DNA from: Candidatus Calditenuaceae archaeon | Lineage (GTDB): Archaea; Thermoproteota; Nitrososphaeria_A; Caldarchaeales; Calditenuaceae | Assembly: GCA_025058055.1 (NCBI GenBank) | Contig: JANXEU010000002.1 | Location: 23,851 to 47,850 of the forward strand | DNA length: 24,000 nucleotides | Direction: 5' to 3' | Shown here: positions 4,375-24,000 of the stretch, piece by piece | Layout: each line of letters begins with the position of its first letter | How positions within the stretch are numbered: the stretch's first letter is position 1 | Program-made: the position numbers and the translations under genes | Notes under the pieces: model-generated | Told to the model about the DNA's origin: nothing | What the model saw: the letters and a program-made list of their open reading frames with translations, nothing else | Databases searched by the model: none

Positions 4375-4425
4375 AAAGCGAGAGCTGGATAGGTTTAACA
4401 TCGGGTCGTAGGCTGATTGTTTAGG

Positions 4426-4974
4426 ATGTTGTCGGGTAAGCAGAGAGAATGGCTGCTTAAGCTTTTGAAGCATCGGAGCCGTTTAACATGTGTTGAATGG
4501 GCGGAGGTCGAGTCTGTTTTGAAGGAGAATTACGAGAAGCTGTCTTCTCTGTATGAGATGGAGAGGACGGGGGGCGAGCCTGCATTAGTTGCTTACGATG
4601 AGGGGGCTGGGCAGCTTGTTTTCATGGATTGTTCGCCCGAGAGCCCGGCTGGTCGTAGAGGGCTGTGCTACGACCGTGAGGCGATGGCTCTCCGCATCAA
4701 GAAAGGTGTGCATCCGAAGGGGAACGTTGTGGACATGGCGGCTGAGATGGGGGTTGAGGTTTTGACGGAGGAACAGTACAGATGGCTGCAGACCGTCGGC
4801 GAGTTTGACACACGCACGTCCAGCTGGCTGAATACACCCGACAATGTTAGAAAACATGGCGGCGCCATATTCGCTGAACGACGGTACAACACGGTTTTCG
4901 TATGTGCAAACAGTGCTCAATCTTTTTACAGCAGCCGAGGATTCCGAGCGGTTCTCAAAGTACCAATAAGCTAA
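4426..4974 (+). CDS. DUF4256-like protein
   Basis: The ORF track starts at TTG 4417; ATG at 4426 is more likely. Segments EMERTGGEP, CSPESPAGRRGLCYDREA, VDMAAEMGVEVLTEEQYRWLQ..GEFDT.TSSWL.TP...R.HGGA.F..RRY..VFV..N.A.S.Y..RGFR match my recollection of the mostly bacterial DUF4256 family. Needs an HMM check. Confidence 0.7.
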   Translation: MLSGKQREWLLKLLKHRSRLTCVEWAEVESVLKENYEKLSSLYEMERTGGEPALVAYDEGAGQLVFMDCSPESPAGRRGLCYDREAMALRIKKGVHPKGNVVDMAAEMGVEVLTEEQYRWLQTVGEFDTRTSSWLNTPDNVRKHGGAIFAERRYNTVFVCANSAQSFYSSRGFRAVLKVPIS

Positions 4975-5426: not shown

Positions 5427-7061
5427 TTAATCACTTCTGTTCAGAATTTCTCTAAGTTTTCTTTTAACGTAGGCTGGGCTTGTTTCAGCGTATTCAGCGA
5501 TTTTAACCGGGTCTGTTTCACCCTTTTCCAGTAGATATTCGATGGCTTTGTCCACAGCTGTTTTACGCACGAGGTTTACGATTTTTCGAGGCGTTCTAAT
5601 TGCGTAGTTTTTCTCGAGCATGTCTAAGTTGTCGAGGATGGTGAATGATTTTTCCGCTTGAATTTCTTTCGGCAGGTTATGAATTTCCTCTATTATTTTC
5701 TTCCAGTCGACTCCGTGCCTTCGGATTGTTTCGGCTGCATCGCCTATGTCTCTTTCCCTTGACGTCAAAAGTTTTAGAAAAACAACGTCGTTGAGGTCTA
5801 GGAGCATCAGCTTAAGTTTACCGAGAGCGATCCCGAAAGTAGCTCGGTCCAGAATTTTTTGTGAAACCTTCACTCTCGCCACCTCTTCCGTGAAAACGTC
5901 TACCCTCATTAAAGTCGGGTGTATGAAGATGTTGCTCGGGTTTGCTCTAAGGTCTCCCTGCGTCCATTCTGCTGTTTTTCGAAACCCTGCAGCTGTTAGT
6001 GCCTTCTCAACTGTTTGGTAGTCTTCTCTGCTCCTGACCAAGATGTCTATGTCTTTCGTCGACGGCTTTATGCCCCTGATGACCATATTTATTCCACCTA
6101 AAAGGTAAACGGTGGTTTCACGTTCAACCTCTCTAGCCCATTTTTCTATGTTGGACATTATTTCGTCTGAGGGGAGTGATGGATGGGCCTTGATTCCGTA
6201 CTGTGAGCAGAGGTCTCTGAACTCGTTCCATGGAAGGAAAATGTCGGGGTTCGCTACTGGAAGACCTTCTACGTAGCTCTCTAAATCAAGCAGAACGCTA
6301 ATCACAGGTGTTTTCTTTGCTATCTTTCTTGCTCTTAGCAGGTCTATGTTTGTTCTGTTGGCCATGTAGAACACGGCGCACATGGTTCTTTCCTGCTTAG
6401 TCCTCGATGAGAGAAGTGCGTGGACCAATACTTCTTCACGGCCTATTCTGTCAGCGGGGTAAGCATAGTAGTCTCGGTCTGTGATGTACAGGACTCCGTA
6501 ATCTTTGAAACGGGAAAAAGCCGTCAACTCGCCTTTCGCAAGCATGCCTCGTGGAACTGATTTGATGATGAAACCATTCGAAAAGAGGACAACTGCTTCT
6601 GGTTCGACGGCTTCCTGCCATTTTATCATCCTGAGTAAAGTAATTAAAAGACGGATGGTTTCGTCTTCAACTACATGATATCGATGGTTGATTTTCTTCA
6701 CGACACCTACTTCCATGAGACCGATGAGTGTTTTCCATACTGTTCTTCTGGACAACTCTGTGTTTTGGATTAGTTCTTCAAGATTTTTTGGTGTGAAAAG
6801 AGCGTATAGAACGTCAGGTGCGGCTCCCTTCAGAATCTTCGTCACGTCATACTGCTGTGCTACTTGTTGGAGCACTTTACCAACCGGGTTCCCACTAATC
6901 ATGTATAAGTTGCCCGCTTTTTCCGCAAGACCCATTTTCATCAGTGATTTTACGACCAAGTAAGCGTGTGGTTTGCTTATACCAAGCCTTAACCCTAGCT
7001 GATCCACGGTCATCGGGCCCCCTAACAAAACCTTGACCGCTCTAGCTTCTGTGCTATTCAT
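5427..7061 (-). CDS. Multi-domain wHTH / nucleotidyltransferase-fold fusion protein (AbiE-like architecture, uncharacterised)
   Basis: 544 aa. Residues ~1-60 and ~85-135 are winged-helix-like (PMTVDQLGLRLGISKPHAYLVVKSLMKMGL; LEELIQNTELSRRTVWKTLIGLMEVGVV). Residues ~150-300 form a domain of unknown type. Residues ~315-445 form an NTase fold with LLGGINMVIRGIKPSTKDIDILV (nt 6039-6098), a later RVDVF acidic residue and LLTSRERDIGD. Residues ~490-544 form a terminal helical/HTH-like tail. Low GC. It ends 18 nt upstream of the MNT gene start. Confidence 0.8.
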   Translation of the reverse strand: MNSTEARAVKVLLGGPMTVDQLGLRLGISKPHAYLVVKSLMKMGLAEKAGNLYMISGNPVGKVLQQVAQQYDVTKILKGAAPDVLYALFTPKNLEELIQNTELSRRTVWKTLIGLMEVGVVKKINHRYHVVEDETIRLLITLLRMIKWQEAVEPEAVVLFSNGFIIKSVPRGMLAKGELTAFSRFKDYGVLYITDRDYYAYPADRIGREEVLVHALLSSRTKQERTMCAVFYMANRTNIDLLRARKIAKKTPVISVLLDLESYVEGLPVANPDIFLPWNEFRDLCSQYGIKAHPSLPSDEIMSNIEKWAREVERETTVYLLGGINMVIRGIKPSTKDIDILVRSREDYQTVEKALTAAGFRKTAEWTQGDLRANPSNIFIHPTLMRVDVFTEEVARVKVSQKILDRATFGIALGKLKLMLLDLNDVVFLKLLTSRERDIGDAAETIRRHGVDWKKIIEEIHNLPKEIQAEKSFTILDNLDMLEKNYAIRTPRKIVNLVRKTAVDKAIEYLLEKGETDPVKIAEYAETSPAYVKRKLREILNRSD

Positions 7062-16357: not shown

Positions 16358-17542
16358 GTGCCCTCATTGCCGTACTACGTCGTCCTCTGGTTGGTGATGC
16401 TTTTCGGATGGATAACGAACTACGTCTGCAGGATCATAGTGGCTCCCGGTGTTCCTGACATAATGCGAGAGTACGGAACCTCTTATGAGGTTACCGGTCT
16501 CGGCCTCATGACCGTTCTGTTGGTCGGATACTTCACGATGCAGCTGCCTGCGGGTCTGATAGGAGATCGATTCGGCAGGAAGAGGGTTCTGGTCCTAGGG
16601 CCCGTGCTGTGGGGAACTGCAACGATTGCTGCCGCTCTGGCTCCCTCCTTTCAGCTACTGGCTGTCTCGAGGTTCTTCAAGGGACTTGCCATGGGAACTT
16701 ACTTCGGAAACGACCGCCCGGTCGTTGCGGCTCACACACCGAAGGAGAAGATGGGGATAGGTCAAGGAGTCTCCTTCTCCGGACTCGGAATAGGGATGGG
16801 GCTCGGCATAATGCTTGGCGGTGTAATGACTGAAGCCCTCGGATGGCGAACTACCCTGATGTTAGTCTCCCTGCCGCCCTTTTTAGCGAGCGCCTTGCTG
16901 TTGAAGTTCGTCAAGGAGCCACCGGCGTCCTCGTCCTCGCATAAAGTTTCTAAGGCTTCTATCGGAGAGGTCTTCAGGAACAGGGACTTGTGGTTGCTGA
17001 ACTTCGCGGCCTTCTGCTCACTCTTCTCACTCTGGTCCGTCCTTTGGCTTCCCACGGTCTTCAGGGAGGAGGGCATCGAGACCGAGTGGGCCTCTGTTCT
17101 CTCCTCGCTCTTCGGGTTCGCGAGTCCGTTCGGACTCATGTTCAGCGGTTTCGTCTCGGACATGCTAGTGCGACGAGGCATCGGAAGGAAGGCGTGGCTC
17201 GGAACGTCGATCGTTCTGCACGGCCTCCTCTGGTCCCTGTTCGGGTATGCGTTGAGCATGAGGGCTCCTCTCTGGGTTTTGATGGTGCTCGTCTTCGGCG
17301 CAGGGTTCTGGCAGTGGGGTCTCTGGTCGCCAATGTACGCGATCATCGCAACGATGGTGCCTGCCGGTGTCATGGGAACGGCGTACGGTTTGAACAACTT
17401 CGTCGGCCAGATGGGTGGCGTCTCTCCGTGGATAATCGGGTGGATAAGAGACCTGACAGGTAGCTTCATTCCTGCATACTACGTCGTAGGCGCGATCGCG
17501 ATTGTGGGAGGTTGCAGCGCCTTGTTGGTCAGAAGAAGGTAA
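16358..17542 (+). CDS. MFS transporter
   Basis: 394 aa with about 12 hydrophobic segments. MFS motif A is GLIGDRFGRKRVLVLG, between TM2 and TM3. GTG start. Confidence 0.85.
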   Translation: MPSLPYYVVLWLVMLFGWITNYVCRIIVAPGVPDIMREYGTSYEVTGLGLMTVLLVGYFTMQLPAGLIGDRFGRKRVLVLGPVLWGTATIAAALAPSFQLLAVSRFFKGLAMGTYFGNDRPVVAAHTPKEKMGIGQGVSFSGLGIGMGLGIMLGGVMTEALGWRTTLMLVSLPPFLASALLLKFVKEPPASSSSHKVSKASIGEVFRNRDLWLLNFAAFCSLFSLWSVLWLPTVFREEGIETEWASVLSSLFGFASPFGLMFSGFVSDMLVRRGIGRKAWLGTSIVLHGLLWSLFGYALSMRAPLWVLMVLVFGAGFWQWGLWSPMYAIIATMVPAGVMGTAYGLNNFVGQMGGVSPWIIGWIRDLTGSFIPAYYVVGAIAIVGGCSALLVRRR

Positions 17543-17689: not shown

Positions 17690-18310
17690 TCAGACGCTGC
17701 CCTTCGTCGACCTCCCGTAAGCGTAGCGAGGGTTCGTCGACCACGCGTGTCTTAGAGCCAAGGCTAAAGCCTTGAAGGCCGCCTCTACCTTGTGATGATC
17801 GTTGTACCCTCTTAAGACCTCGACGTGTGCGACCGCGGGGACGTTGATCACCACCGATTCGATGAAGTGAACCAGATCCTCCGCTGCTACGTCCTCGACC
17901 CGCGTGCCAGTGAGCTTCAGATCGACTCTCACGTAGGCCCTCCTCACTAAGTCAACCGCGACGCTTGCGATGCTCTCGTCCATGGGGACAAGCGCGTGAC
18001 CGAACCTGTTGATGCCCTCGCGCTCGCCGAGCGCTTCACCGATGGCCTTACCAAGCGTTATGGCCGTGTCCTCGACGCCGTGGTGGACGAGGTCCCACTT
18101 CACCGAGACCCTCATATCAGAAAGGCTGTGAAAAGCCAGCTGGGCCAGCATGTGGTCGAGGAACTTCAACCCCGTGCTGCCCTCGAAGAGGCCCTGGCCG
18201 TCGAGCGAGATCGACACCTCCACCTCTGTCTCCGACGTCTTCCTAGAGCAGCTGCCGAACCTCCCAGTGGTCAACCCATCCGAGTTCCAACTCGGTGGAT
18301 ATAGGTTCAA
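17690..18310 (-). CDS. hisB: Imidazoleglycerol-phosphate dehydratase
   Basis: Contains RKTSETEVEVSISLDG, FLDHMLAQLAFHS, HH.VEDTAI.LG, PMDE and NDHHKVEAAFKALA, all IGPD signatures. Start is uncertain (TTG 18310 or TTG 18274). Confidence 0.9.
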   Translation of the reverse strand: MNLYPPSWNSDGLTTGRFGSCSRKTSETEVEVSISLDGQGLFEGSTGLKFLDHMLAQLAFHSLSDMRVSVKWDLVHHGVEDTAITLGKAIGEALGEREGINRFGHALVPMDESIASVAVDLVRRAYVRVDLKLTGTRVEDVAAEDLVHFIESVVINVPAVAHVEVLRGYNDHHKVEAAFKALALALRHAWSTNPRYAYGRSTKGSV

Positions 18311-18367: not shown

Positions 18368-19564
18368 TCAAGAGGAGGTGCTGGAGGAGCGAGCCTTAAC
18401 GACCTCCATCAGGCTCACGAGCTCCCTCACGTCGTGCGCTATCACGTCGGCCTTCAGCTCGATGAACTCCCTTCGTGCCGAGTCGGGATCCTCCGATAGA
18501 CCGATTATCCCAGCGAAGAGCGGCCTGACGCCGTACGACTCCGCATAGCTGCACATGTAGAGGTCCTCGGCCGAGTTGCCGACGTAGAGGACCTCACGGA
18601 CGTCTCCGAGGGCTACAACGGACTTGATGAGACCGTAGGGGCTCGGTTTAGATACGACCTCACCCAACCCGCTGCGGGACTCGTCTGAGAGGAAGACGCA
18701 CGCTCTCTCATTGAACAGGCCCATCACTTCGTTGAGCACAAGGGCCGTGGTGTAGCGCTCCCTACCTGTCACCATCCCAAGCCCCCCGATGCCGAGCTGC
18801 TCCTTGAGCTTGAGGAGCATCGCCTCGTCGACGAGCGGGGTCTCGTTCTGGAAGAGGCCCTTTCCGAGCTCGAAGTAAGGGCCTCTACCGAAGAGTTCCC
18901 GGACCACCATCGGGCCGTAGTAGAGGTCGTCGAAGACCGTCTCGAGCAGGTCCCTTCCGTAGACCCTACCAGTACCGATGAAGCGCTTGAAGAGCTCGTA
19001 CTCCTCGCCGATGCCTTTGTCACGGGCCTCTTCCCCAAAAACCCTCTCCAGCATCTCCCTGCTGACGTGCTTCTGCCTGTCGCCCGTGACCGACAGTATG
19101 GCGTCCTCTATGGGGATTGGGTTGAACCTTCCGAGCCGTTTAGCGTGAGATCTCCGTCTCATCATCTCTAATTCCACGGTCCGCAGAAGTTCGTCTGGGC
19201 CCTCTGAACGTTCCAGCGCACGTTCAAGGACCTCGCCGAGCTCCCTCGCGAGCGTCGTCTCCGATCCCGAGAACAGCCAGAGCAGCATTACCCATGCTGT
19301 GTCGACGTCGTTGTTGAAGCCACCGGTGCTCCTCAGCCTGTACACCACCGAGATGTCGAGCGATGTCTCAGGCACCTCGATGCCCATCGAGCGCTCCAGC
19401 ACCGTCCTCACCGACTCGATGATCGCCCTGTCGTAGGAGCCCCTCACGTCGATCAGGACGCCGTCGCAGTCGAAGATCACCGCGTCGACCTCTTTCAGCC
19501 TCTCCAGCGAGCGGAGGGCCACCAGAGCCCCCGAGACCTTCGCGTAGTTCATGATCTCTGCCAA
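18368..19564 (-). CDS. HAD-superfamily hydrolase with very large cap insertion (function unknown)
   Basis: 398 aa. Motif I is VIFDCDGVLIDV, motif II MVTGR, motif III KPSPYGL and motif IV YVGNSAEDL. About 200 aa lie between motifs I and II. ATG 19552 may be the true start, since A/T box 19583-19590 lies upstream. Confidence 0.7.
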   Translation of the reverse strand: MAEIMNYAKVSGALVALRSLERLKEVDAVIFDCDGVLIDVRGSYDRAIIESVRTVLERSMGIEVPETSLDISVVYRLRSTGGFNNDVDTAWVMLLWLFSGSETTLARELGEVLERALERSEGPDELLRTVELEMMRRRSHAKRLGRFNPIPIEDAILSVTGDRQKHVSREMLERVFGEEARDKGIGEEYELFKRFIGTGRVYGRDLLETVFDDLYYGPMVVRELFGRGPYFELGKGLFQNETPLVDEAMLLKLKEQLGIGGLGMVTGRERYTTALVLNEVMGLFNERACVFLSDESRSGLGEVVSKPSPYGLIKSVVALGDVREVLYVGNSAEDLYMCSYAESYGVRPLFAGIIGLSEDPDSARREFIELKADVIAHDVRELVSLMEVVKARSSSTSS

Positions 19565-19623
19565 CTAGAAGGTTAGCCCGTGAACAAAAATCTACCCAGA
19601 GACTTCGACCACTTGTCCCGATG

Positions 19624-20262
19624 TCATCCCGCGTACCACAGGTAAACCAAGTAGAGGCCAGCGCCGACGAGCACGATCCTCGAGAGATGGTTCGTGTATT
19701 TCATCAGCCTGCCTAACTTCTTGATGAGGCCAGCTCCGATCAGCGATGAGGCAGTCACTAAAGTTGTCAGAGGTGTAGCGACGCCCGTCGTGTAGGCCAG
19801 CACCAGCATCAGAGCGCCGTCGGGGCCCAGAGCCAGCGCATAGGTGAACAGGACTGCGAAGGTCGGAACCGCACAGCCTGCAGCTCCCAGCGAGTAGGCG
19901 GAACCTGCAAGCACGATCGCGAAGGCCCTAGGGCCCTTGAACTCGGACCCCATGAGGTTGAATCGGGGCGCGACGCCAAGTGCTCCTAACGCCACGCACA
20001 TAACCCCCGCAACCAAGTTCAGGTTCGGCATCAGGGACCTCAGCGTCTCCCTGAAGGCCAAGGAGATGGCCGTGAGGGCAGACAACGTCAGCAGGGCACC
20101 AGTCAACAAAAGCACCACTCTCATAGCTATCCTCGATGGCCGTCGGTCCAACGAGAGTCCGTATATTACGAGCGCGGGGAGGAGGGAGTAACCGCAAGGT
20201 GAGAGGGCTGTCGATAGCCCCGCTAGGAACACTAGGGTGACCGTGACGAGGTCAACGTTCAA
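19624..20262 (-). CDS. ccdA: CcdA/DsbD-family thiol-disulfide transmembrane electron transporter
   Basis: 212 aa with about 6 TM segments. Conserved Cys are in TM1 (LSPCGYSLLPAL) and TM4 (GAAGCAVPTF). The TTG start overlaps the upstream stop (TTGA). Confidence 0.8.
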   Translation of the reverse strand: MNVDLVTVTLVFLAGLSTALSPCGYSLLPALVIYGLSLDRRPSRIAMRVVLLLTGALLTLSALTAISLAFRETLRSLMPNLNLVAGVMCVALGALGVAPRFNLMGSEFKGPRAFAIVLAGSAYSLGAAGCAVPTFAVLFTYALALGPDGALMLVLAYTTGVATPLTTLVTASSLIGAGLIKKLGRLMKYTNHLSRIVLVGAGLYLVYLWYAG

Positions 20263-21269
20263 CCGTGGGACTCCTCTATGATCTTCTTGACGGCCGATTC
20301 TAGGTCTTGTGGCGGGAAGACGCCGAACCGCTTCTCGTAGACCATCCTGCCCTTCACGTCGAACCCGAAGATCGTCTCCTGAGAGACTACCCTGAGGTCC
20401 TGCATGAACTGCAGGTTGGTGAGGATGAAGGTCCAGTCGTCCGGCAGCGAGTGTCTGGTCTTGAAATGGGCTATGTCCTGCTCGATGTCGCCGGGGTCAA
20501 AGCTCTTCACCAGCACCGTTATCGCGCCCTTGTACTTGGGGTAGACCTGAGCGAGGTTTCTAACGTTGGTGCTGCAGGTGGGGCACCAAGTCGCGAAGAA
20601 GAGCATAATGACAGGCTTACCCCTGGCCAGGACCTCGCCGAGGGTCAGCTTCCTCCCCTCGATCGTGACCAGCTCCCTGTGGAGGTAGTGGAGGTCTTCT
20701 GCGTGGGACGCGTGGTCGTGTCTTCCCATTCCGGAACTGACGGCTTCGCCCTTGAGCTTGGAGAGGTGCTCCTCCAGCAGCGCCTCCCACGACACGACCT
20801 TACCACCCCTCTTCAACGCGAAGTCTGATGCCTTGCTGATGTCCTTAAAGGCAATCAGGCCCGAGAGCATCGGTGTCCTGATGGGTGCCCCGATGACGTA
20901 CCACGCACCTGTCGAGCTGATCTGCTCTCTGGTCTCGAGGTCGTAAACGTATACGACTTCAATCCTGTTGAGCCTGAGGCCCTTCAGAACGCCTTCGCCC
21001 TCGACCTTTCCGGTACCCACCAAAAGGTATGTGAGCATGCAGCCGATGTCATCGAACTTCCTCCACCTTCCGTCGGCCAGCATGAGGGCGGAGAACCTGC
21101 TATCGTTTATGACCATCCCGCAGTACTCGCACCTGTCCGAGCCTATCCTCAGCTGCGATTCACTCGGTTCCAGAAGCTCCCTGCCCACGATGAACGCAGC
21201 ACCAAGCGCTATGGCAGCTGAGCTCGCAGCGATCAAGACCCTCCTTCGGCCTGGGTTAACGGGGTTCAT
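20259..21269 (-). CDS. NosL-like copper chaperone fused to TlpA/ResA-like thioredoxin, Tat-type signal
   Basis: I chose the ATG at 21269, which gives an ATGA overlap with the cupredoxin stop; the ORF track starts at 21299. N-terminal GRRRVLIAASSAAIALGA is followed by the NosL-type segment DRCEYCGMVINDSRFSA...KFDDIGCM...TPM.SGLIAF (CxxCGM at nt 21114-21131). A His-rich linker GRHDHASHAEDLHYLH lies at 20679-20729. The thioredoxin fold has WCPTC at 20574-20588. Confidence 0.8.
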   Translation of the reverse strand: MNPVNPGRRRVLIAASSAAIALGAAFIVGRELLEPSESQLRIGSDRCEYCGMVINDSRFSALMLADGRWRKFDDIGCMLTYLLVGTGKVEGEGVLKGLRLNRIEVVYVYDLETREQISSTGAWYVIGAPIRTPMLSGLIAFKDISKASDFALKRGGKVVSWEALLEEHLSKLKGEAVSSGMGRHDHASHAEDLHYLHRELVTIEGRKLTLGEVLARGKPVIMLFFATWCPTCSTNVRNLAQVYPKYKGAITVLVKSFDPGDIEQDIAHFKTRHSLPDDWTFILTNLQFMQDLRVVSQETIFGFDVKGRMVYEKRFGVFPPQDLESAVKKIIEESHG

Positions 21270-21730
21270 GATACCACGATTACCGTCCCGGTCATCCACG
21301 GATGCAGGTTGCAGTAGTAGTCGAACCTCCCGGCCTTGTTGAACGTGAAGGAGGCCGAGCCTCCGGGGCTGATCGACGGGTAGTTGAAGGAGCCGTCCCG
21401 GGCCACGACTGCGTGCACGACATCGTCCTCGTTGACCCAGACGACCGTGTTGTTGACGTTTATCTTGACCCTAATGGTCTGAGGGTCGAAGGTCAAGTTA
21501 GGGTTGGTCCCGGACCCCTTCGGGTTCTTCACGATCACCCTGCCCGGAGTAGGTACAGGAGTCTCCTGTCTCGGAGTGGTCCTAGGCGTCGGCGTAGGTG
21601 TCGGAGTTGTGGGTGTCGTCGGCGTCTGGGTAGGTTGGGGAGCTTCCTGCTGCGAGACCAACAAGATGTAGGCCGCTGCACCGAGGACCGCGACGAGTAT
21701 CAGAACGGATATCGCGGACGTTCTGTTCAT
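21266..21730 (-). CDS. Membrane-anchored type-1 (blue) copper protein, amicyanin-like
   Basis: 154 aa. An N-terminal TM helix is followed by a Pro/Thr-rich linker (PTQTPTTPTTPTPTPTPRTTP). The cupredoxin domain has ligands H (VVHAVV) and C-x2-H-x2-M (YYCNLHPWM). Confidence 0.85.
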   Translation of the reverse strand: MNRTSAISVLILVAVLGAAAYILLVSQQEAPQPTQTPTTPTTPTPTPTPRTTPRQETPVPTPGRVIVKNPKGSGTNPNLTFDPQTIRVKINVNNTVVWVNEDDVVHAVVARDGSFNYPSISPGGSASFTFNKAGRFDYYCNLHPWMTGTVIVVS

Positions 21731-21744
21731 GTCGATCTAACCCG

Positions 21745-22797
21745 TCACTCCTCTATTATCAGTATGCCGATCATACCTGCGTCAGCGTGGGAGACGACGT
21801 GGCAGTGGAAGAGGAAGACTCCTGGCTTGGTGTAGGTCACCTCGATCGTGTCAGCGGCTCCCGGGACGAGTGGCACGACCTGAGCCGGCCAAGACCTGCC
21901 TCCCAGCACCCACTTCGACTTAAGGTCGCCGACATGGAGGTGGAAGCTGTGGTAGATGTCGCCGATGTTGACGATGTGGAACCTGATCTTCTCCCCGACC
22001 TTCGCCTTGAAGACCGGGAACGAGCTGTTGAAGAGCTTGACAACGCCCTCCAAACCCTTCAGCTGCGGGAAGATCTTGCTCTGGCCGACGTAGACCAGCT
22101 CTAGCTCAGGCTCGCCTCCGGGCAGACCCATCCCGTTCATGATGTAGAAGGGCCTCGGGCCCTCGCCGACGATGGCTCCCTGCACCGACGGTAGCTCAGA
22201 CATGAAGATCACGAACTCCCTAGCGGGCGGCTCATCGAAGTCGTAGACGATTATCGCACCGTAGAGGCCCATCAACATGTGGTCGACGATCCTGTGGCCT
22301 CCCCCGACGAGCGGTCCGCCCGAGTGGCAGTGATAGTACCAAATCCCGGCCTTGGTCGCGGGCCACTCATAGGTCCACTCTCCTCCCGGAGGTATCATCG
22401 AGCCTTTGCCGGTGCCGGTCACGAGATTGATCTGGCTGCCGTCGTGCTGGAGCTCGTAGTAGGGCATGTGCGGGTGGAGGCTGTGCGTCAGGTTGAGCTT
22501 GTTGACCGCCCTAACCCTGATCAGGTCTCCGACCTTCGCCATCAGCGTAGGACCGGGCACTGTGCCGTTGTAGGTCCATGCCTTCCAGGTCACCCCCGGC
22601 GCGATCTCGATGTTCGCCTGCTTGATCTCGATGTAGTACTCCCTCACCTGCCCTGTCTGCGCGACGGCAGGCACGCCCGCCAGCTGCTGGAGCTGCCTGA
22701 AGACGGGCGAGACGTACGGCGCCACCAGCACGCCCAACACTGCTCCCAGTGCCACGAAGATCAGGAAGCCGAGTACAATCCTGCCTCTTTCGTTCAT
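21745..22797 (-). CDS. Two-domain multicopper oxidase (type-1 Cu ligand sets in both domains)
   Basis: 350 aa with an N-terminal signal anchor. Domain 1 has HSLHPH (aa 105-110, nt 22468-22485) and YHCH (156-158), followed by H168/H173/M174. Domain 2 has HSFHLH (283-288) and HCHVVSHADAGM (331-342, nt 21772-21807). Confidence 0.85.
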   Translation of the reverse strand: MNERGRIVLGFLIFVALGAVLGVLVAPYVSPVFRQLQQLAGVPAVAQTGQVREYYIEIKQANIEIAPGVTWKAWTYNGTVPGPTLMAKVGDLIRVRAVNKLNLTHSLHPHMPYYELQHDGSQINLVTGTGKGSMIPPGGEWTYEWPATKAGIWYYHCHSGGPLVGGGHRIVDHMLMGLYGAIIVYDFDEPPAREFVIFMSELPSVQGAIVGEGPRPFYIMNGMGLPGGEPELELVYVGQSKIFPQLKGLEGVVKLFNSSFPVFKAKVGEKIRFHIVNIGDIYHSFHLHVGDLKSKWVLGGRSWPAQVVPLVPGAADTIEVTYTKPGVFLFHCHVVSHADAGMIGILIIEE

Positions 22798-22837
22798 GCT
22801 CGTATTTTCAATCGATTACCTGAAATACCTTAACAGC

Positions 22838-22871
22838 GTATAGTACTATACAATCGTATGTAATTCTATAC
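22838..22871. promoter_or_regulatory. Operator-like palindrome pair upstream of the copper operon
   Basis: A perfect 14-bp palindrome GTATAGTACTATAC lies at 22838-22851. A related imperfect site GTATGTAATTCTATAC lies at 22856-22871. A TATA-like TTAAGGTATTT (minus strand) lies about 26-36 nt upstream of the oxidase ATG at 22797, immediately downstream of the palindrome. Confidence 0.4.
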
Positions 22872-22959
22872 ATCACCAGAAGATGGGTGGAGAAGGGCAT
22901 GTGGAGGTTGAACAGTCCGGGCGTCCTACGCTCAACGCCGTAAAATGTAAAGGATCGGC

Positions 22960-24000
22960 TCACGTGTCGCGCCTGCCGAGGGCAACCGCGTGGAACTCCA
23001 GGCCCTCCGCGACGGGCAGTGCTCCGACCAGCTCGCCGGCCCTCCTGACCACCCGCTCGCTCCCGACGACGACGTTCACCACCCTGACGAAGTCCAAGAC
23101 GGAGAGTGTGCTCCTCGAGGAGGCCCAGCCCCCGGTTGGGAGGACGTGCGATGCTCCTGCGAAATAGTCGACGGCGACGCTCACCATCCCTCTGCCCATC
23201 GTGATCACGCCGGCGTTCACGAGGTCGCTGATGAGGGGCCTTAACCTGTTCGAAGCGATAGATACGTGCTCTGGTGACAAAGCGTTGACGAACTTCATCG
23301 CCGACCTCCAGCTTTCCGAGATCATGACTGGACCGGTTCTCTCGAGGCTCACCCTTACAACACTGTCCTCCGGCAGGCTCACCGTCAGCTCCTGCAGCCT
23401 CTCGACGAGCTCATAGCTCGCCGATCGGTCCGTAGTGACGGCCAACACCAGAGTGTCCGGTGAGTGTTCAGCCTGTGCCATTATGTCCAGCGCAACCGAG
23501 TCGAGATCTGCGGCAGAATCGAAGAGGACGACGAGCTCCGTCGGTCCTGCGGCGAAGTCTATCGTTGTCTCAGTCTGAAGCAGCAGCTTCGCGGCCACCA
23601 CGTACCTGTTACCTGGCCCGACGACCTTCCTTACCGGTTCAACGGATTGGGTGCCGTAGGTAAGGGCCGCGATGGCCTGGGCCCCACCGGACCAGAGGAC
23701 TCTATCGAACCCTGCTACGTAGGCCGCAGCGAGCACCTCTCTCCTTCTCTCCTTGTCGAGTTGAGGGGGAGTGGCAAGCGTCCTGCTTTTGACACCAGCG
23801 ATTGAGGCCGGGACGCCCATCATGACAATCGTGCTGAGGTATACGGCTCTCCCTCCAGGGGCATAGCAGCCCACCGAGTCCAGCGGTCTCACCTCCGACC
23901 TGATCACCGTGCCCTCTGAGTACTTCACGGAGAAGGTTAATCTCCTGAGCCTCTCCCTTTCCAACTTAGCCACGCGCCTCGAGAGGGCCCTCAGGGCCCT
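22960..24000 (-). CDS. hisD: Histidinol dehydrogenase (partial, N-terminus beyond window end)
   Basis: Contains VGCYAPGGRAVYLSTIVMMGVPASIAGV, GGAQAIAALTYG, GPGN.YV..AK, AGPTE, AQAEHSPD and HVLPTGGWA. The reading frame stays open from 23973 to 24000, and roughly 90 N-terminal residues are missing. Confidence 0.9.
   Translation of the reverse strand, partial: RALRALSRRVAKLERERLRRLTFSVKYSEGTVIRSEVRPLDSVGCYAPGGRAVYLSTIVMMGVPASIAGVKSRTLATPPQLDKERRREVLAAAYVAGFDRVLWSGGAQAIAALTYGTQSVEPVRKVVGPGNRYVVAAKLLLQTETTIDFAAGPTELVVLFDSAADLDSVALDIMAQAEHSPDTLVLAVTTDRSASYELVERLQELTVSLPEDSVVRVSLERTGPVMISESWRSAMKFVNALSPEHVSIASNRLRPLISDLVNAGVITMGRGMVSVAVDYFAGASHVLPTGGWASSRSTLSVLDFVRVVNVVVGSERVVRRAGELVGALPVAEGLEFHAVALGRRDT

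Follow-up and report, generated by a model that had tools for sequence, protein, structure and literature searches.

Four consecutive genes on the minus strand (22797..19624) of a 24,000-nucleotide (nt) stretch of DNA from a hot-spring archaeon, Candidatus Calditenuaceae archaeon (contig JANXEU010000002.1; Caldarchaeales, formerly 'Aigarchaeota') encode a multicopper oxidase (MCO), a cupredoxin, a protein in which a NosL domain is fused to a thioredoxin (Trx) domain, and a CcdA-like membrane protein. With a probability that we put at roughly 0.6, these genes form an operon-like module through which an extracytoplasmic type A MCO is made and probably also operated, and in this module a relay from CcdA to Trx would keep the NosL site reduced for the loading of Cu(I). 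The observations behind this reading are the order of the genes, the identities of the domains, the conservation of metal-ligand and redox residues, the near-exclusive linkage of the MCO and NosL-Trx genes, and the pairing of Trx and CcdA genes; from them we infer the direction of electron flow, the transfer of copper, the client of the Trx domain and co-transcription.

The four genes were located in the whole stretch that was analysed (hereafter, the window) from its list of open reading frames (ORFs) and by direct reading of the minus strand. The MCO gene (22797..21745, 350 amino acids) is separated from the cupredoxin gene (21730..21266, 154 amino acids) by a 14-nt gap, cgggttagatcgac. An ATGA overlap then joins the cupredoxin gene to the NosL-Trx gene (21269..20259, 336 amino acids counted from the ATG; a longer GTG-initiated ORF is also present), and a TTGA overlap joins the latter to the CcdA-like gene (20262..19624, 212 amino acids), whose TTG start overlaps the NosL-Trx stop codon. 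The start codons of these last two genes are backed by a database gene call (P0001, 336 amino acids) and by the N-termini of homologues (P0019/P0020). An earlier reading of the letters and ORFs, made without database searches (the sequence-only reading), had described the same strand, gap and overlaps, which are confirmed here. Its family assignments also hold for all four proteins, through Pfam matches for the MCO, the cupredoxin and the NosL-Trx protein and through a profile match to the structure 5VKV for CcdA; the membership of the MCO in the type A class was absent from it. Each of the three soluble proteins carries a single N-terminal hydrophobic segment.

Distribution and linkage of the module

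Homologues were searched for in a collection of 5.8 billion proteins and, exhaustively by profile, among 1.84 billion representatives of 50%-identity clusters; in addition, genomes were scanned with the MCO as seed, and metagenomes with the fusion as seed. Homologues of the fusion formed 15 clusters in the 5.8-billion-protein collection, from Nitrososphaerota/Caldarchaeum metagenome-assembled genomes (MAGs) or metagenome sequences. Among the representatives, the full-length fusion was found in two 50%-identity clusters, and all its named members are Caldarchaeales. Further sequences matched in two stretches as NosL-Trx fusions were really tandem NosL-NosL, Trx-Trx or SBP-Trx proteins.

The MCO-seeded scan yielded loci from 17 Caldarchaeales species and 63 loci from other lineages. 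A NosL(-Trx) gene comes right after the MCO gene, with or without a cupredoxin gene between them, in all 16 Caldarchaeales loci having downstream DNA. The cupredoxin gene is there in 12 of the 16, being missing in L016, L019, L020 and L022, and a CcdA-like gene then follows in L007-L011. A CcdA gene is adjacent in the Calditenuaceae-type branch only, to which the locus in the window, bearing all four genes, belongs. At the 63 loci of MCO homologues from other lineages, no NosL, Trx or CcdA-like gene was found as a neighbour of the MCO gene over about 6 kb; a downstream cupredoxin gene was seen at some Nitrosopumilus MCO loci. The fusion-seeded scan of metagenomes returned 30 loci, with the MCO gene directly upstream in 25, a contig end in four and a deletion variant in one. 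Altogether, about 45 loci had enough sequence for the arrangement to be read, and the fusion lies downstream of the MCO in every one except that variant, L112.

Recurrence of the same gene order in dozens of independent contigs shows that the arrangement is not due to chance, and the wide differences in the flanks of the module among loci show that its genes travel together. Genes of histidine biosynthesis flank it in its nearest relatives only (L007-L009), whose MCOs are 93-94% identical, and the other four-gene copies have unrelated neighbours. The suggestion of the sequence-only reading that the module had been inserted into a histidine gene neighbourhood is therefore not borne out; the his-gene setting is a local accident and not part of the biology of the module.

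As CcdA is confined to one branch and the cupredoxin is sometimes missing, the invariant, lineage-specific core consists of the MCO and NosL-Trx; the cupredoxin is usual, and CcdA is found in one branch. The co-occurrence across genomes that the sequence-only reading had proposed to check thus holds for the MCO and NosL-Trx as a conserved unit, but not for the cupredoxin and CcdA, neither of which is universal. Likewise, the term 'self-contained', which it had applied to the pathway, suits the Calditenuaceae-type branch, but not the Caldarchaeum-type loci, which have no adjacent CcdA gene and several of which have no cupredoxin gene. Unannotated genes of 231-239 codons near two of the latter (L003 and L004) did not match the CcdA-like profile.

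In the deletion variant (L112, positions 1-1300), which is 98% identical to L108, about 1.5 kb has been lost, leaving only some 20 codons at the end of the MCO gene. The contig represents a natural variant without the MCO or else an artefact of assembly.

The multicopper oxidase

The MCO consists of an N-terminal signal or anchor (at about residues 3-33) and two domains matching the Pfam families Cu-oxidase_3 (84 bits, residues 58-186) and Cu-oxidase_2 (69 bits, residues 256-348). Among proteins of solved structure it shows full-length similarity to 9CCK (Nmar_1354; 6.7e-30), 3GDC (2.2e-29) and small laccases of the SLAC type. The pattern H-x2-H-x-H ... H-C-H is present in both domains. The type 1 (T1) site of domain 1 comprises H105, C157, H173 and the axial L178, that of domain 2 H283, C332, H337 and the axial M342, and all eight histidines of the trinuclear cluster are found (H108, H110, H156, H158, H286, H288, H331 and H333). 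When the MCO was aligned with 16 homologues from many phyla, all 16 ligand positions were invariant except C157, which was nearly so, and the axial Leu of the domain-1 T1 site was invariant across the aligned family. HCH occurs in both domains of 103 of the 120 best database homologues. The protein contains two Cys residues in total, both of them T1 ligands, and 2.9% Met, with no MxxM runs.

Since it has T1 ligands in both domains together with the eight trinuclear histidines, the protein is, by the definition of the class, a predicted type A two-domain MCO. The type A class of the Nakamura classification, with a T1 copper in both domains, was noted earlier from haloarchaeal sequences, first in Halobacterium sp. 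NRC-1, and has been proposed as an evolutionary intermediate of the blue copper oxidases; no biochemical or structural study of it was found in the literature searched. Like the proteins on which the class was founded, the MCO described here has two cupredoxin domains, T1 ligands in both, four HxH/HCH motifs and a trinuclear cluster predicted to lie between subunits. Its family is set apart by the invariant axial Leu in the domain-1 T1 site and by a wide range of phyla: Chloroflexota, Armatimonadota, Actinomycetota, Thermoplasmatota, Nitrosopumilaceae and Caldarchaeales.

Nmar_1354 of the MCO4 lineage, the best solved-structure match, is a two-domain MCO that carries a 'dangling' cupredoxin at its C-terminus and oxidizes NH2OH to HNO. 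It resembles the present system in that a two-domain MCO works with an extra T1 cupredoxin, but only its domain 1 carries a T1 site (HVH replacing HCH in domain 2), its cupredoxin is fused, and no NosL, Trx or CcdA accessory genes have been described for it. The Caldarchaeales are not known to oxidize ammonia.

It should be noted that 9CCK is titled a nitrite reductase in the sequence file, while it is actually the MCO Nmar_1354. An identity of the MCO as NirK, prompted by this title and by the family TIGR02376, was rejected: the score was 75 bits against a cutoff of 296, and the presence of all eight cluster histidines points to an oxidase and not to NirK. As regards a relation of the Nitrosopumilaceae homologue to the 'MCO1' lineage, an adjacent ZIP permease gene was looked for in two loci and none was found. 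At one further locus, on a metagenome contig (L095:3050-4431), the MCO frame is split into four ORFs, through either pseudogene formation or sequencing errors; the cupredoxin, NosL-Trx and CcdA genes there are intact.

The NosL-thioredoxin fusion protein

The third protein matches the Pfam family NosL with 45.3 bits (cutoff 24) and, around its WCPTC motif, AhpC-TSA, Redoxin and Thioredoxin; its matches to NCBIfam models of the ResA/DsbE type are all below the cutoffs. It begins with a twin-arginine (RR) motif and a transmembrane or signal segment (residues 8-30). Both R8 and R9 show at least 90% conservation, for example within SRRRFLIAAGS and MRRRVFLAVAG. The twin-arginine translocation (Tat) signal named in the sequence-only reading amounts to this conserved motif ahead of a hydrophobic segment; no tat genes lie within the window. 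The basic N-terminus and the one transmembrane segment predict an orientation with the N-terminus inside and the C-terminus outside. An extracytoplasmic Trx domain would fit such an N-in anchor and the pairing with CcdA, whose gene overlaps the stop codon of the fusion.

The NosL domain (about residues 44-170) contains C47-x2-C50-G-M52, D73/D74, C77 and T132-P133-M134, and the Trx-fold domain (about 198-336) contains W228-C229-P-T-C232, SFDP (256-259) and Q297-E298-T299. In the 14 fusion proteins that were aligned, C47, C50, G51, M52, D66, D74, C77, W123, T132-P133-M134, H184, FFATWCPTCS, SFDP and QET are invariant. The profile built from these 14 proteins matched NosL of P. stutzeri (7OSF) at 5e-9, with CxxCGM aligned, and also matched ResA and CcmG. 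In NosL of S. denitrificans, Cu(I) is bound by Cys62, Met64 and Met145, and Zn by Cys59, Cys88 and Asp92 (PMC8457098). Judging by the spacing, C50, M52 and M134 would correspond to the Cu(I) ligands, and C47, C77 and D73 or D74 to a probable structural Zn site. NosL homologues are known outside nos clusters, and the cysteines of the metal site are prone to disulphide formation (PMC8457098).

In an AlphaFold2 model (pLDDT 84, pTM 0.50) the NosL and Trx domains are each confidently folded, and the His-rich linker between them is disordered. In Foldseek comparisons the NosL domain matched 7ZNQ_L, 7OSF_H and 7OG7 with TM scores of 0.67-0.73. The protein therefore shares with the NosL proteins of P. 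stutzeri (7OSF) and S. denitrificans (7OG7) the Pfam family, the fold (TM score about 0.7), the CxxCGM motif and counterparts of the Cu(I) and Zn ligands. Unlike the NosL that serves N2O reductase, however, it is fused to Trx, is anchored by an RR motif and a transmembrane segment instead of a lipoprotein Cys (there is no lipobox cysteine), and has an MCO as its apparent client. No nosZ/D/F/Y-like genes were present in the window or among the called genes of the four contexts inspected.

The linker (residues 176-197; residues 177-197 at window 20679..20741), with the sequence HDHASHAEDLHYLH, contains one invariant His, H184. Its counterpart in the alignment with P. stutzeri NosL is the His-rich tail at the C-terminus, and it may serve as an additional arm for binding copper.

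The Trx domain is closest in fold to ResA, DsbF, CcmG and StoA (TM scores 0.80-0.86), with lower scores for ScoI and Aquifex Sco-like structures (0.61-0.67). The cis-Pro loop is missing from it (window 20376..20384), Q297-E298-T299 aligning with the 'LPT' of ResA. The whole clade of related Trx proteins (P0156-P0190) is likewise without cis-Pro, with QET or TQxT in its place, and its members still pair with CcdA-like genes. A Sco-like identity of the domain was considered, since cis-Pro is missing and an SFDPGD motif is present, but the ranking of the fold matches, the spacing of CxxC and the absence of a conserved His speak against it.

The CcdA-like protein and its pairing with thioredoxin

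As a single sequence the fourth protein gave no Pfam or NCBIfam match, even at E=10. A profile of 14 CcdA-like sequences, in contrast, matched CcdA of Thermus thermophilus (5VKV) end to end (residues 6-206, E=1.6e-19). Two cysteines, Cys23 in the first transmembrane segment (LSPCGY) and Cys130 in the fourth (AAGCxxP), are invariant and aligned to both functional cysteines of 5VKV. More distant homologues (P0026-P0028, three clusters) carry PF02683. From the profile-to-structure match and these PF02683-bearing homologues, the fourth protein is assigned as a putative membrane conduit of the CcdA family for thiol-disulphide electrons.

The closest stand-alone relatives of the Trx domain are membrane-anchored proteins with WCPxC, FDPxE and TQxT motifs. 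The closest one examined (P0156), which was the one inspected in its genomic context, has a CcdA-like gene 25 nt downstream (139 bits on the local profile). The CcdA homologue P0026, in turn, is encoded inside a cluster for cytochrome c maturation (Ccm) with a Trx-like gene upstream. The link between Trx and CcdA, on which the sequence-only reading had relied, is thus recovered in both contexts. Because Trx-like and CcdA-like genes are paired in them, Trx and CcdA are probably an older functional couple, onto which the NosL domain was fused.

The cupredoxin

The second protein matches the Pfam families Cupredoxin_1 and Copper-bind and is built from an N-terminal transmembrane segment, a linker rich in Pro and Thr (at about residues 28-62) and a domain with a T1 copper site. 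The T1 ligands are H106, C140 (the sole Cys), H143 and M146, in the spacing C-x2-H-x2-M. This spacing is all that the protein shares with amicyanin, the partner of methylamine dehydrogenase; the description as 'amicyanin-like' in the sequence-only reading stands in this respect, but the amicyanin equivalog TIGR02657 scored 41 bits against a cutoff of 110, and an identity as amicyanin was rejected. The protein is best called a generic membrane-anchored cupredoxin.

A cupredoxin is fused C-terminally, through a Pro/Thr/Ala-rich linker, to MCO homologues in the metagenome sequences P0056, P0070, P0094, P0119 and P0124 (441-490 amino acids). This architecture mirrors both the separate cupredoxin gene of the locus and the MCO4 architecture of ammonia-oxidizing archaea. 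The copper of the appended cupredoxin in Nmar_1354 lies 13.5 A from the T1 copper of the MCO. Given this copper-copper distance and the existence of MCO-cupredoxin fusions in other phyla, the cupredoxin is likely to be a redox partner of the MCO.

Proposed function and alternative explanations

The NosL-Trx protein is most likely the dedicated copper-loading machinery of the MCO, because the fusion occurs almost only beside it. According to the mechanism that we propose, the MCO and the cupredoxin would be exported and held at the membrane by their N-terminal hydrophobic segments, and NosL-Trx would be anchored alongside them with both domains outside the cell. The NosL domain would take up Cu(I) at its Cys/Met site (C50, M52 and M134), with C47, C77 and an Asp as the probable structural Zn site, and would pass it to the apo-oxidase and possibly to the cupredoxin too. 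Electrons from the cytoplasm would reach the WCPTC motif of Trx through Cys23 and Cys130 of CcdA, and Trx would keep the oxidation-prone cysteines of NosL reduced and/or turn Cu(II) into Cu(I), in a setting that is oxic, hot and unenclosed. The cupredoxin would act as one-electron partner of the oxidase.

With regard to the client of Trx, the sequence-only reading had noted that reductases of the TlpA type keep the Cys ligands of copper proteins reduced. This fits poorly here, since the MCO and the cupredoxin hold single T1 cysteines only and offer no client disulphide. The metal site of NosL with its three cysteines, or Cu(II) itself, appears a more plausible client.

Several points weigh against this account. 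The deletion variant L112 keeps the cupredoxin and NosL-Trx genes intact without the MCO, so the accessory genes may have another client. MCO homologues of about 50% identity in many bacteria and in ammonia-oxidizing archaea have no NosL-Trx gene within about 6 kb, so the chaperone is no inherent part of this enzyme family. Only in the Calditenuaceae-type branch does a CcdA gene adjoin the module, and genomes of the Caldarchaeum type would have to encode a source of reductant at another place. As the MCO and the cupredoxin have no pairs of cysteines able to form a disulphide, their need for a thiol reductase would be indirect. The chemistry of the Trx domain may be atypical, because its clade is without the cis-Pro that is usual in thiol-disulphide oxidoreductases, and in the AlphaFold2 model (pTM 0.50) the relative placement of the NosL and Trx domains is not confident. 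Finally, the function of the MCO module is argued from gene linkage and residue conservation, and whatever goes beyond these we infer.

A bolder version of the copper-loading proposal, to which we would give somewhat less than even odds, is that NosL and the CcdA-fed Trx together form a reductant-driven machine at the cell surface, turning environmental Cu(II) into Cu(I) and inserting it into the type A MCO. If this is true, NosL-Trx would be the first metallochaperone known to be dedicated to an MCO from an archaeon, and would open a route to producing and characterizing the long-postulated 'ancestral' type A MCO.

An alternative explanation, which we consider unlikely, is that the module serves copper detoxification. 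The MCO would then be a cuprous oxidase like CueO or CutO, with Cu(I), presented to it by NosL-Trx, as its substrate and not as its cofactor; copper-responsive regulators would switch the operon on, and NosL-Trx would trap toxic extracellular Cu(I) or repair copper-damaged thiols in the manner of ScsABCD, with CcdA powering the repair. Such a role would agree with the conserved operator-like palindromes upstream of the MCO gene and the divergent HTH_10 gene at Caldarchaeum-type loci, which point to conditional rather than constitutive expression, and with the presence of a DUF411 gene 2.4 kb downstream at L003. It also has precedents: in CutO and similar MCOs, copper serves as substrate as well as cofactor and accessory genes are in the same operon, and the MCOs of ammonia-oxidizing archaea have been proposed to oxidize Cu(I). 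However, the MCO has none of the methionine-rich insert that marks cuprous oxidases of the CueO/PcoA type (2.9% Met, no MxxM runs), no gene for a P-type ATPase, CopZ or other efflux protein was found in the window or in the flanks of the module, and the known copper-detoxification MCOs are without a dedicated membrane-anchored cupredoxin partner.

The Trx-like domain could also be a copper-binding station similar to Sco or ScsC, with copper shuttling between its CxxC and the NosL site and with CcdA only priming the CxxC, an idea that we regard as distinctly improbable. It draws on the invariant Glu298 (QET) at the cis-Pro position, replaced by TQxT throughout the clade of relatives, as the loss of cis-Pro reportedly permits metal binding by CxxC sites of the Trx fold. 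The motif SFDP(G/S)(D/E) resembles DPxRD, a motif found in Sco proteins, the fold matches include ScoI and Sco-like structures from Aquifex, and the His-rich linker contains an invariant His. Sco-type structures are nevertheless outranked by ResA, DsbF, CcmG and StoA, there is no match to Pfam SCO1-SenC, the motif is CxxC instead of CxxxC, and the Trx domain itself has no invariant His. Moreover, relatives that are also without cis-Pro pair with CcdA, in one case beside cytochrome c maturation genes, which speaks for ordinary reductase duty.

Lastly, it is very improbable that the adjacency reflects only shared regulation or history, with NosL-Trx and CcdA serving another cuproenzyme (such as subunit II of a haem-copper oxidase) or general extracytoplasmic redox and with the MCO independent of them. 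In favour of this reading, L112 retains its cupredoxin and NosL-Trx genes, homologues of the MCO in other lineages manage with no such accessory genes, and Trx and CcdA also act together in other processes, for instance in the maturation of cytochrome c. Against it, in about 45 loci with otherwise unrelated flanks the fusion never occurred apart from the MCO locus, the cupredoxin, NosL-Trx and CcdA genes are linked by overlapping stop and start codons with the MCO gene only 14 nt away, and no other cuproenzyme gene is consistently nearby.

Comparison with known systems and significance

The proposed copper-loading system resembles the TlpA/ScoI/PCuAC system of CuA assembly and the ResA/CcmG systems fed by CcdA/DsbD in having an anchored, extracytoplasmic Trx-fold reductase, supplied by a membrane conduit, that would prepare metal or haem sites involving Cys. 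In Bradyrhizobium, TlpA reduces ScoI and CoxB ahead of their metallation. In contrast to the TlpA/ScoI/PCuAC system, the reductase of the present locus is fused to the chaperone, which is of the NosL type and not Sco or PCuAC; in contrast to the TlpA and ResA systems, the client has single-Cys T1 sites only and the Trx domain is without cis-Pro.

The cutFOG operon of Rhodobacter capsulatus, in which an MCO is encoded with dedicated copper-binding accessory genes and the activity of CutO depends on cutF, is a precedent for an operon-encoded maturation factor of an MCO. CutF and CutG, however, are unrelated to NosL or Trx, and there is no CcdA. CutO is a three-domain, Tat-type MCO of copper detoxification. 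Besides cutFOG, no operon-encoded chaperone of an MCO was found in the literature searched.

That search, in which the literature on Aigarchaeota MCOs was covered through titles and abstracts, returned no description of a NosL-Trx fusion, of its association with type A MCOs, or of the four-gene version coupled to CcdA. The fusion, its near-exclusive association with type A MCOs in Caldarchaeales and the four-gene version therefore appear to be undescribed. Already known are the family of each part (the parts are named in MAG annotations), the type A class, and arrangements of an MCO plus a cupredoxin.

The loading of extracytoplasmic MCOs with their four or more copper ions is poorly understood, and the near-inseparable pair of NosL-Trx and MCO makes a role in copper loading directly testable. 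If our interpretation is correct, the range of NosL clients would be widened beyond N2O reductase, as the paper on the NosL structure hinted (PMC8457098), and an archaeon lacking a periplasm would possess a thiol-reductant relay devoted to the trafficking of copper. In practice, the accessory genes may be what is needed for the production of an active type A MCO.

Regulatory regions and surroundings of the module

The intergenic region upstream of the MCO gene (22798..22959, minus strand) contains, from a reading of the sequence, two operator-like sites in tandem followed by a TATA-like stretch. The first site, TGTATAGAATTACATAC, is at 22872..22856, and the second, GTATAGTACTATAC, at 22851..22838, is a perfect 14-bp palindrome; the A/T-rich stretch, TTAAGGTATTT, at about 22833..22823, lies roughly 25-35 nt before the ATG of the MCO gene. 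Related palindromes of the form TGTAT(A/G)C..GCATACA occur at the same distance (about -105 to -60 from the MCO start) in the other four-gene loci (L001 and L007-L011) and are putative operators of a regulator; no regulator gene adjoins the sites within the window. A different conserved palindrome, CCCTAATATGTTAGGG or CCCGTACATGTACGGG, is found at about -82 from the MCO start in the Caldarchaeum-type loci (L003-L006 and L013-L022), with an additional TGTATGCAAT-like element in L005, L015 and L017. Where gene calls were inspected among these loci (L003-L006), an HTH_10 regulator is divergently transcribed. This suggests that the same copper module is under clade-specific regulation.

Archaeal transcription is terminated by oligo-T signals. 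On the minus strand, the spacer downstream of the module (19581..19623) has a T5 run, TTTTTGTT at 19590..19583, which is a possible terminator of this kind ahead of the next gene, starting at 19564.

The GC content of the module (0.59) is the same as that of its surroundings, and there is thus no sign of recent transfer. Upstream lies hisD (22960..23973, minus strand). Downstream, a gene for a 398-amino-acid HAD hydrolase of the TIGR01548 type (18368..19564, minus strand; score below cutoff) is located between the module and hisB/IGPD (17690..18310, minus strand), followed by a gene for an MFS transporter (16358..17542, plus strand). The hydrolase has the same position between the module and hisB in L007-L009 and may be the enzyme that acts as histidinol-phosphate phosphatase in the his cluster.

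In a Caldarchaeum MAG (L003:8234-9847), an unannotated gene of 239 codons, a DUF6114 gene and a DUF411 gene are present about 1.3-2.9 kb downstream of the module, and two HEPN/nucleotidyltransferase pairs flank these three genes. DUF411 is a CopG-like metal-binding family, which hints that these surroundings are copper-related.

Elsewhere in the window, the segment 3500..7500 has a lower GC content (0.44-0.49 compared with about 0.58) and may be a foreign island; it includes genes for a DUF4256 protein (4417..4974, plus strand) and for a 544-amino-acid TrmB-HTH/DUF6036 nucleotidyltransferase-like protein (5427..7061, minus strand).

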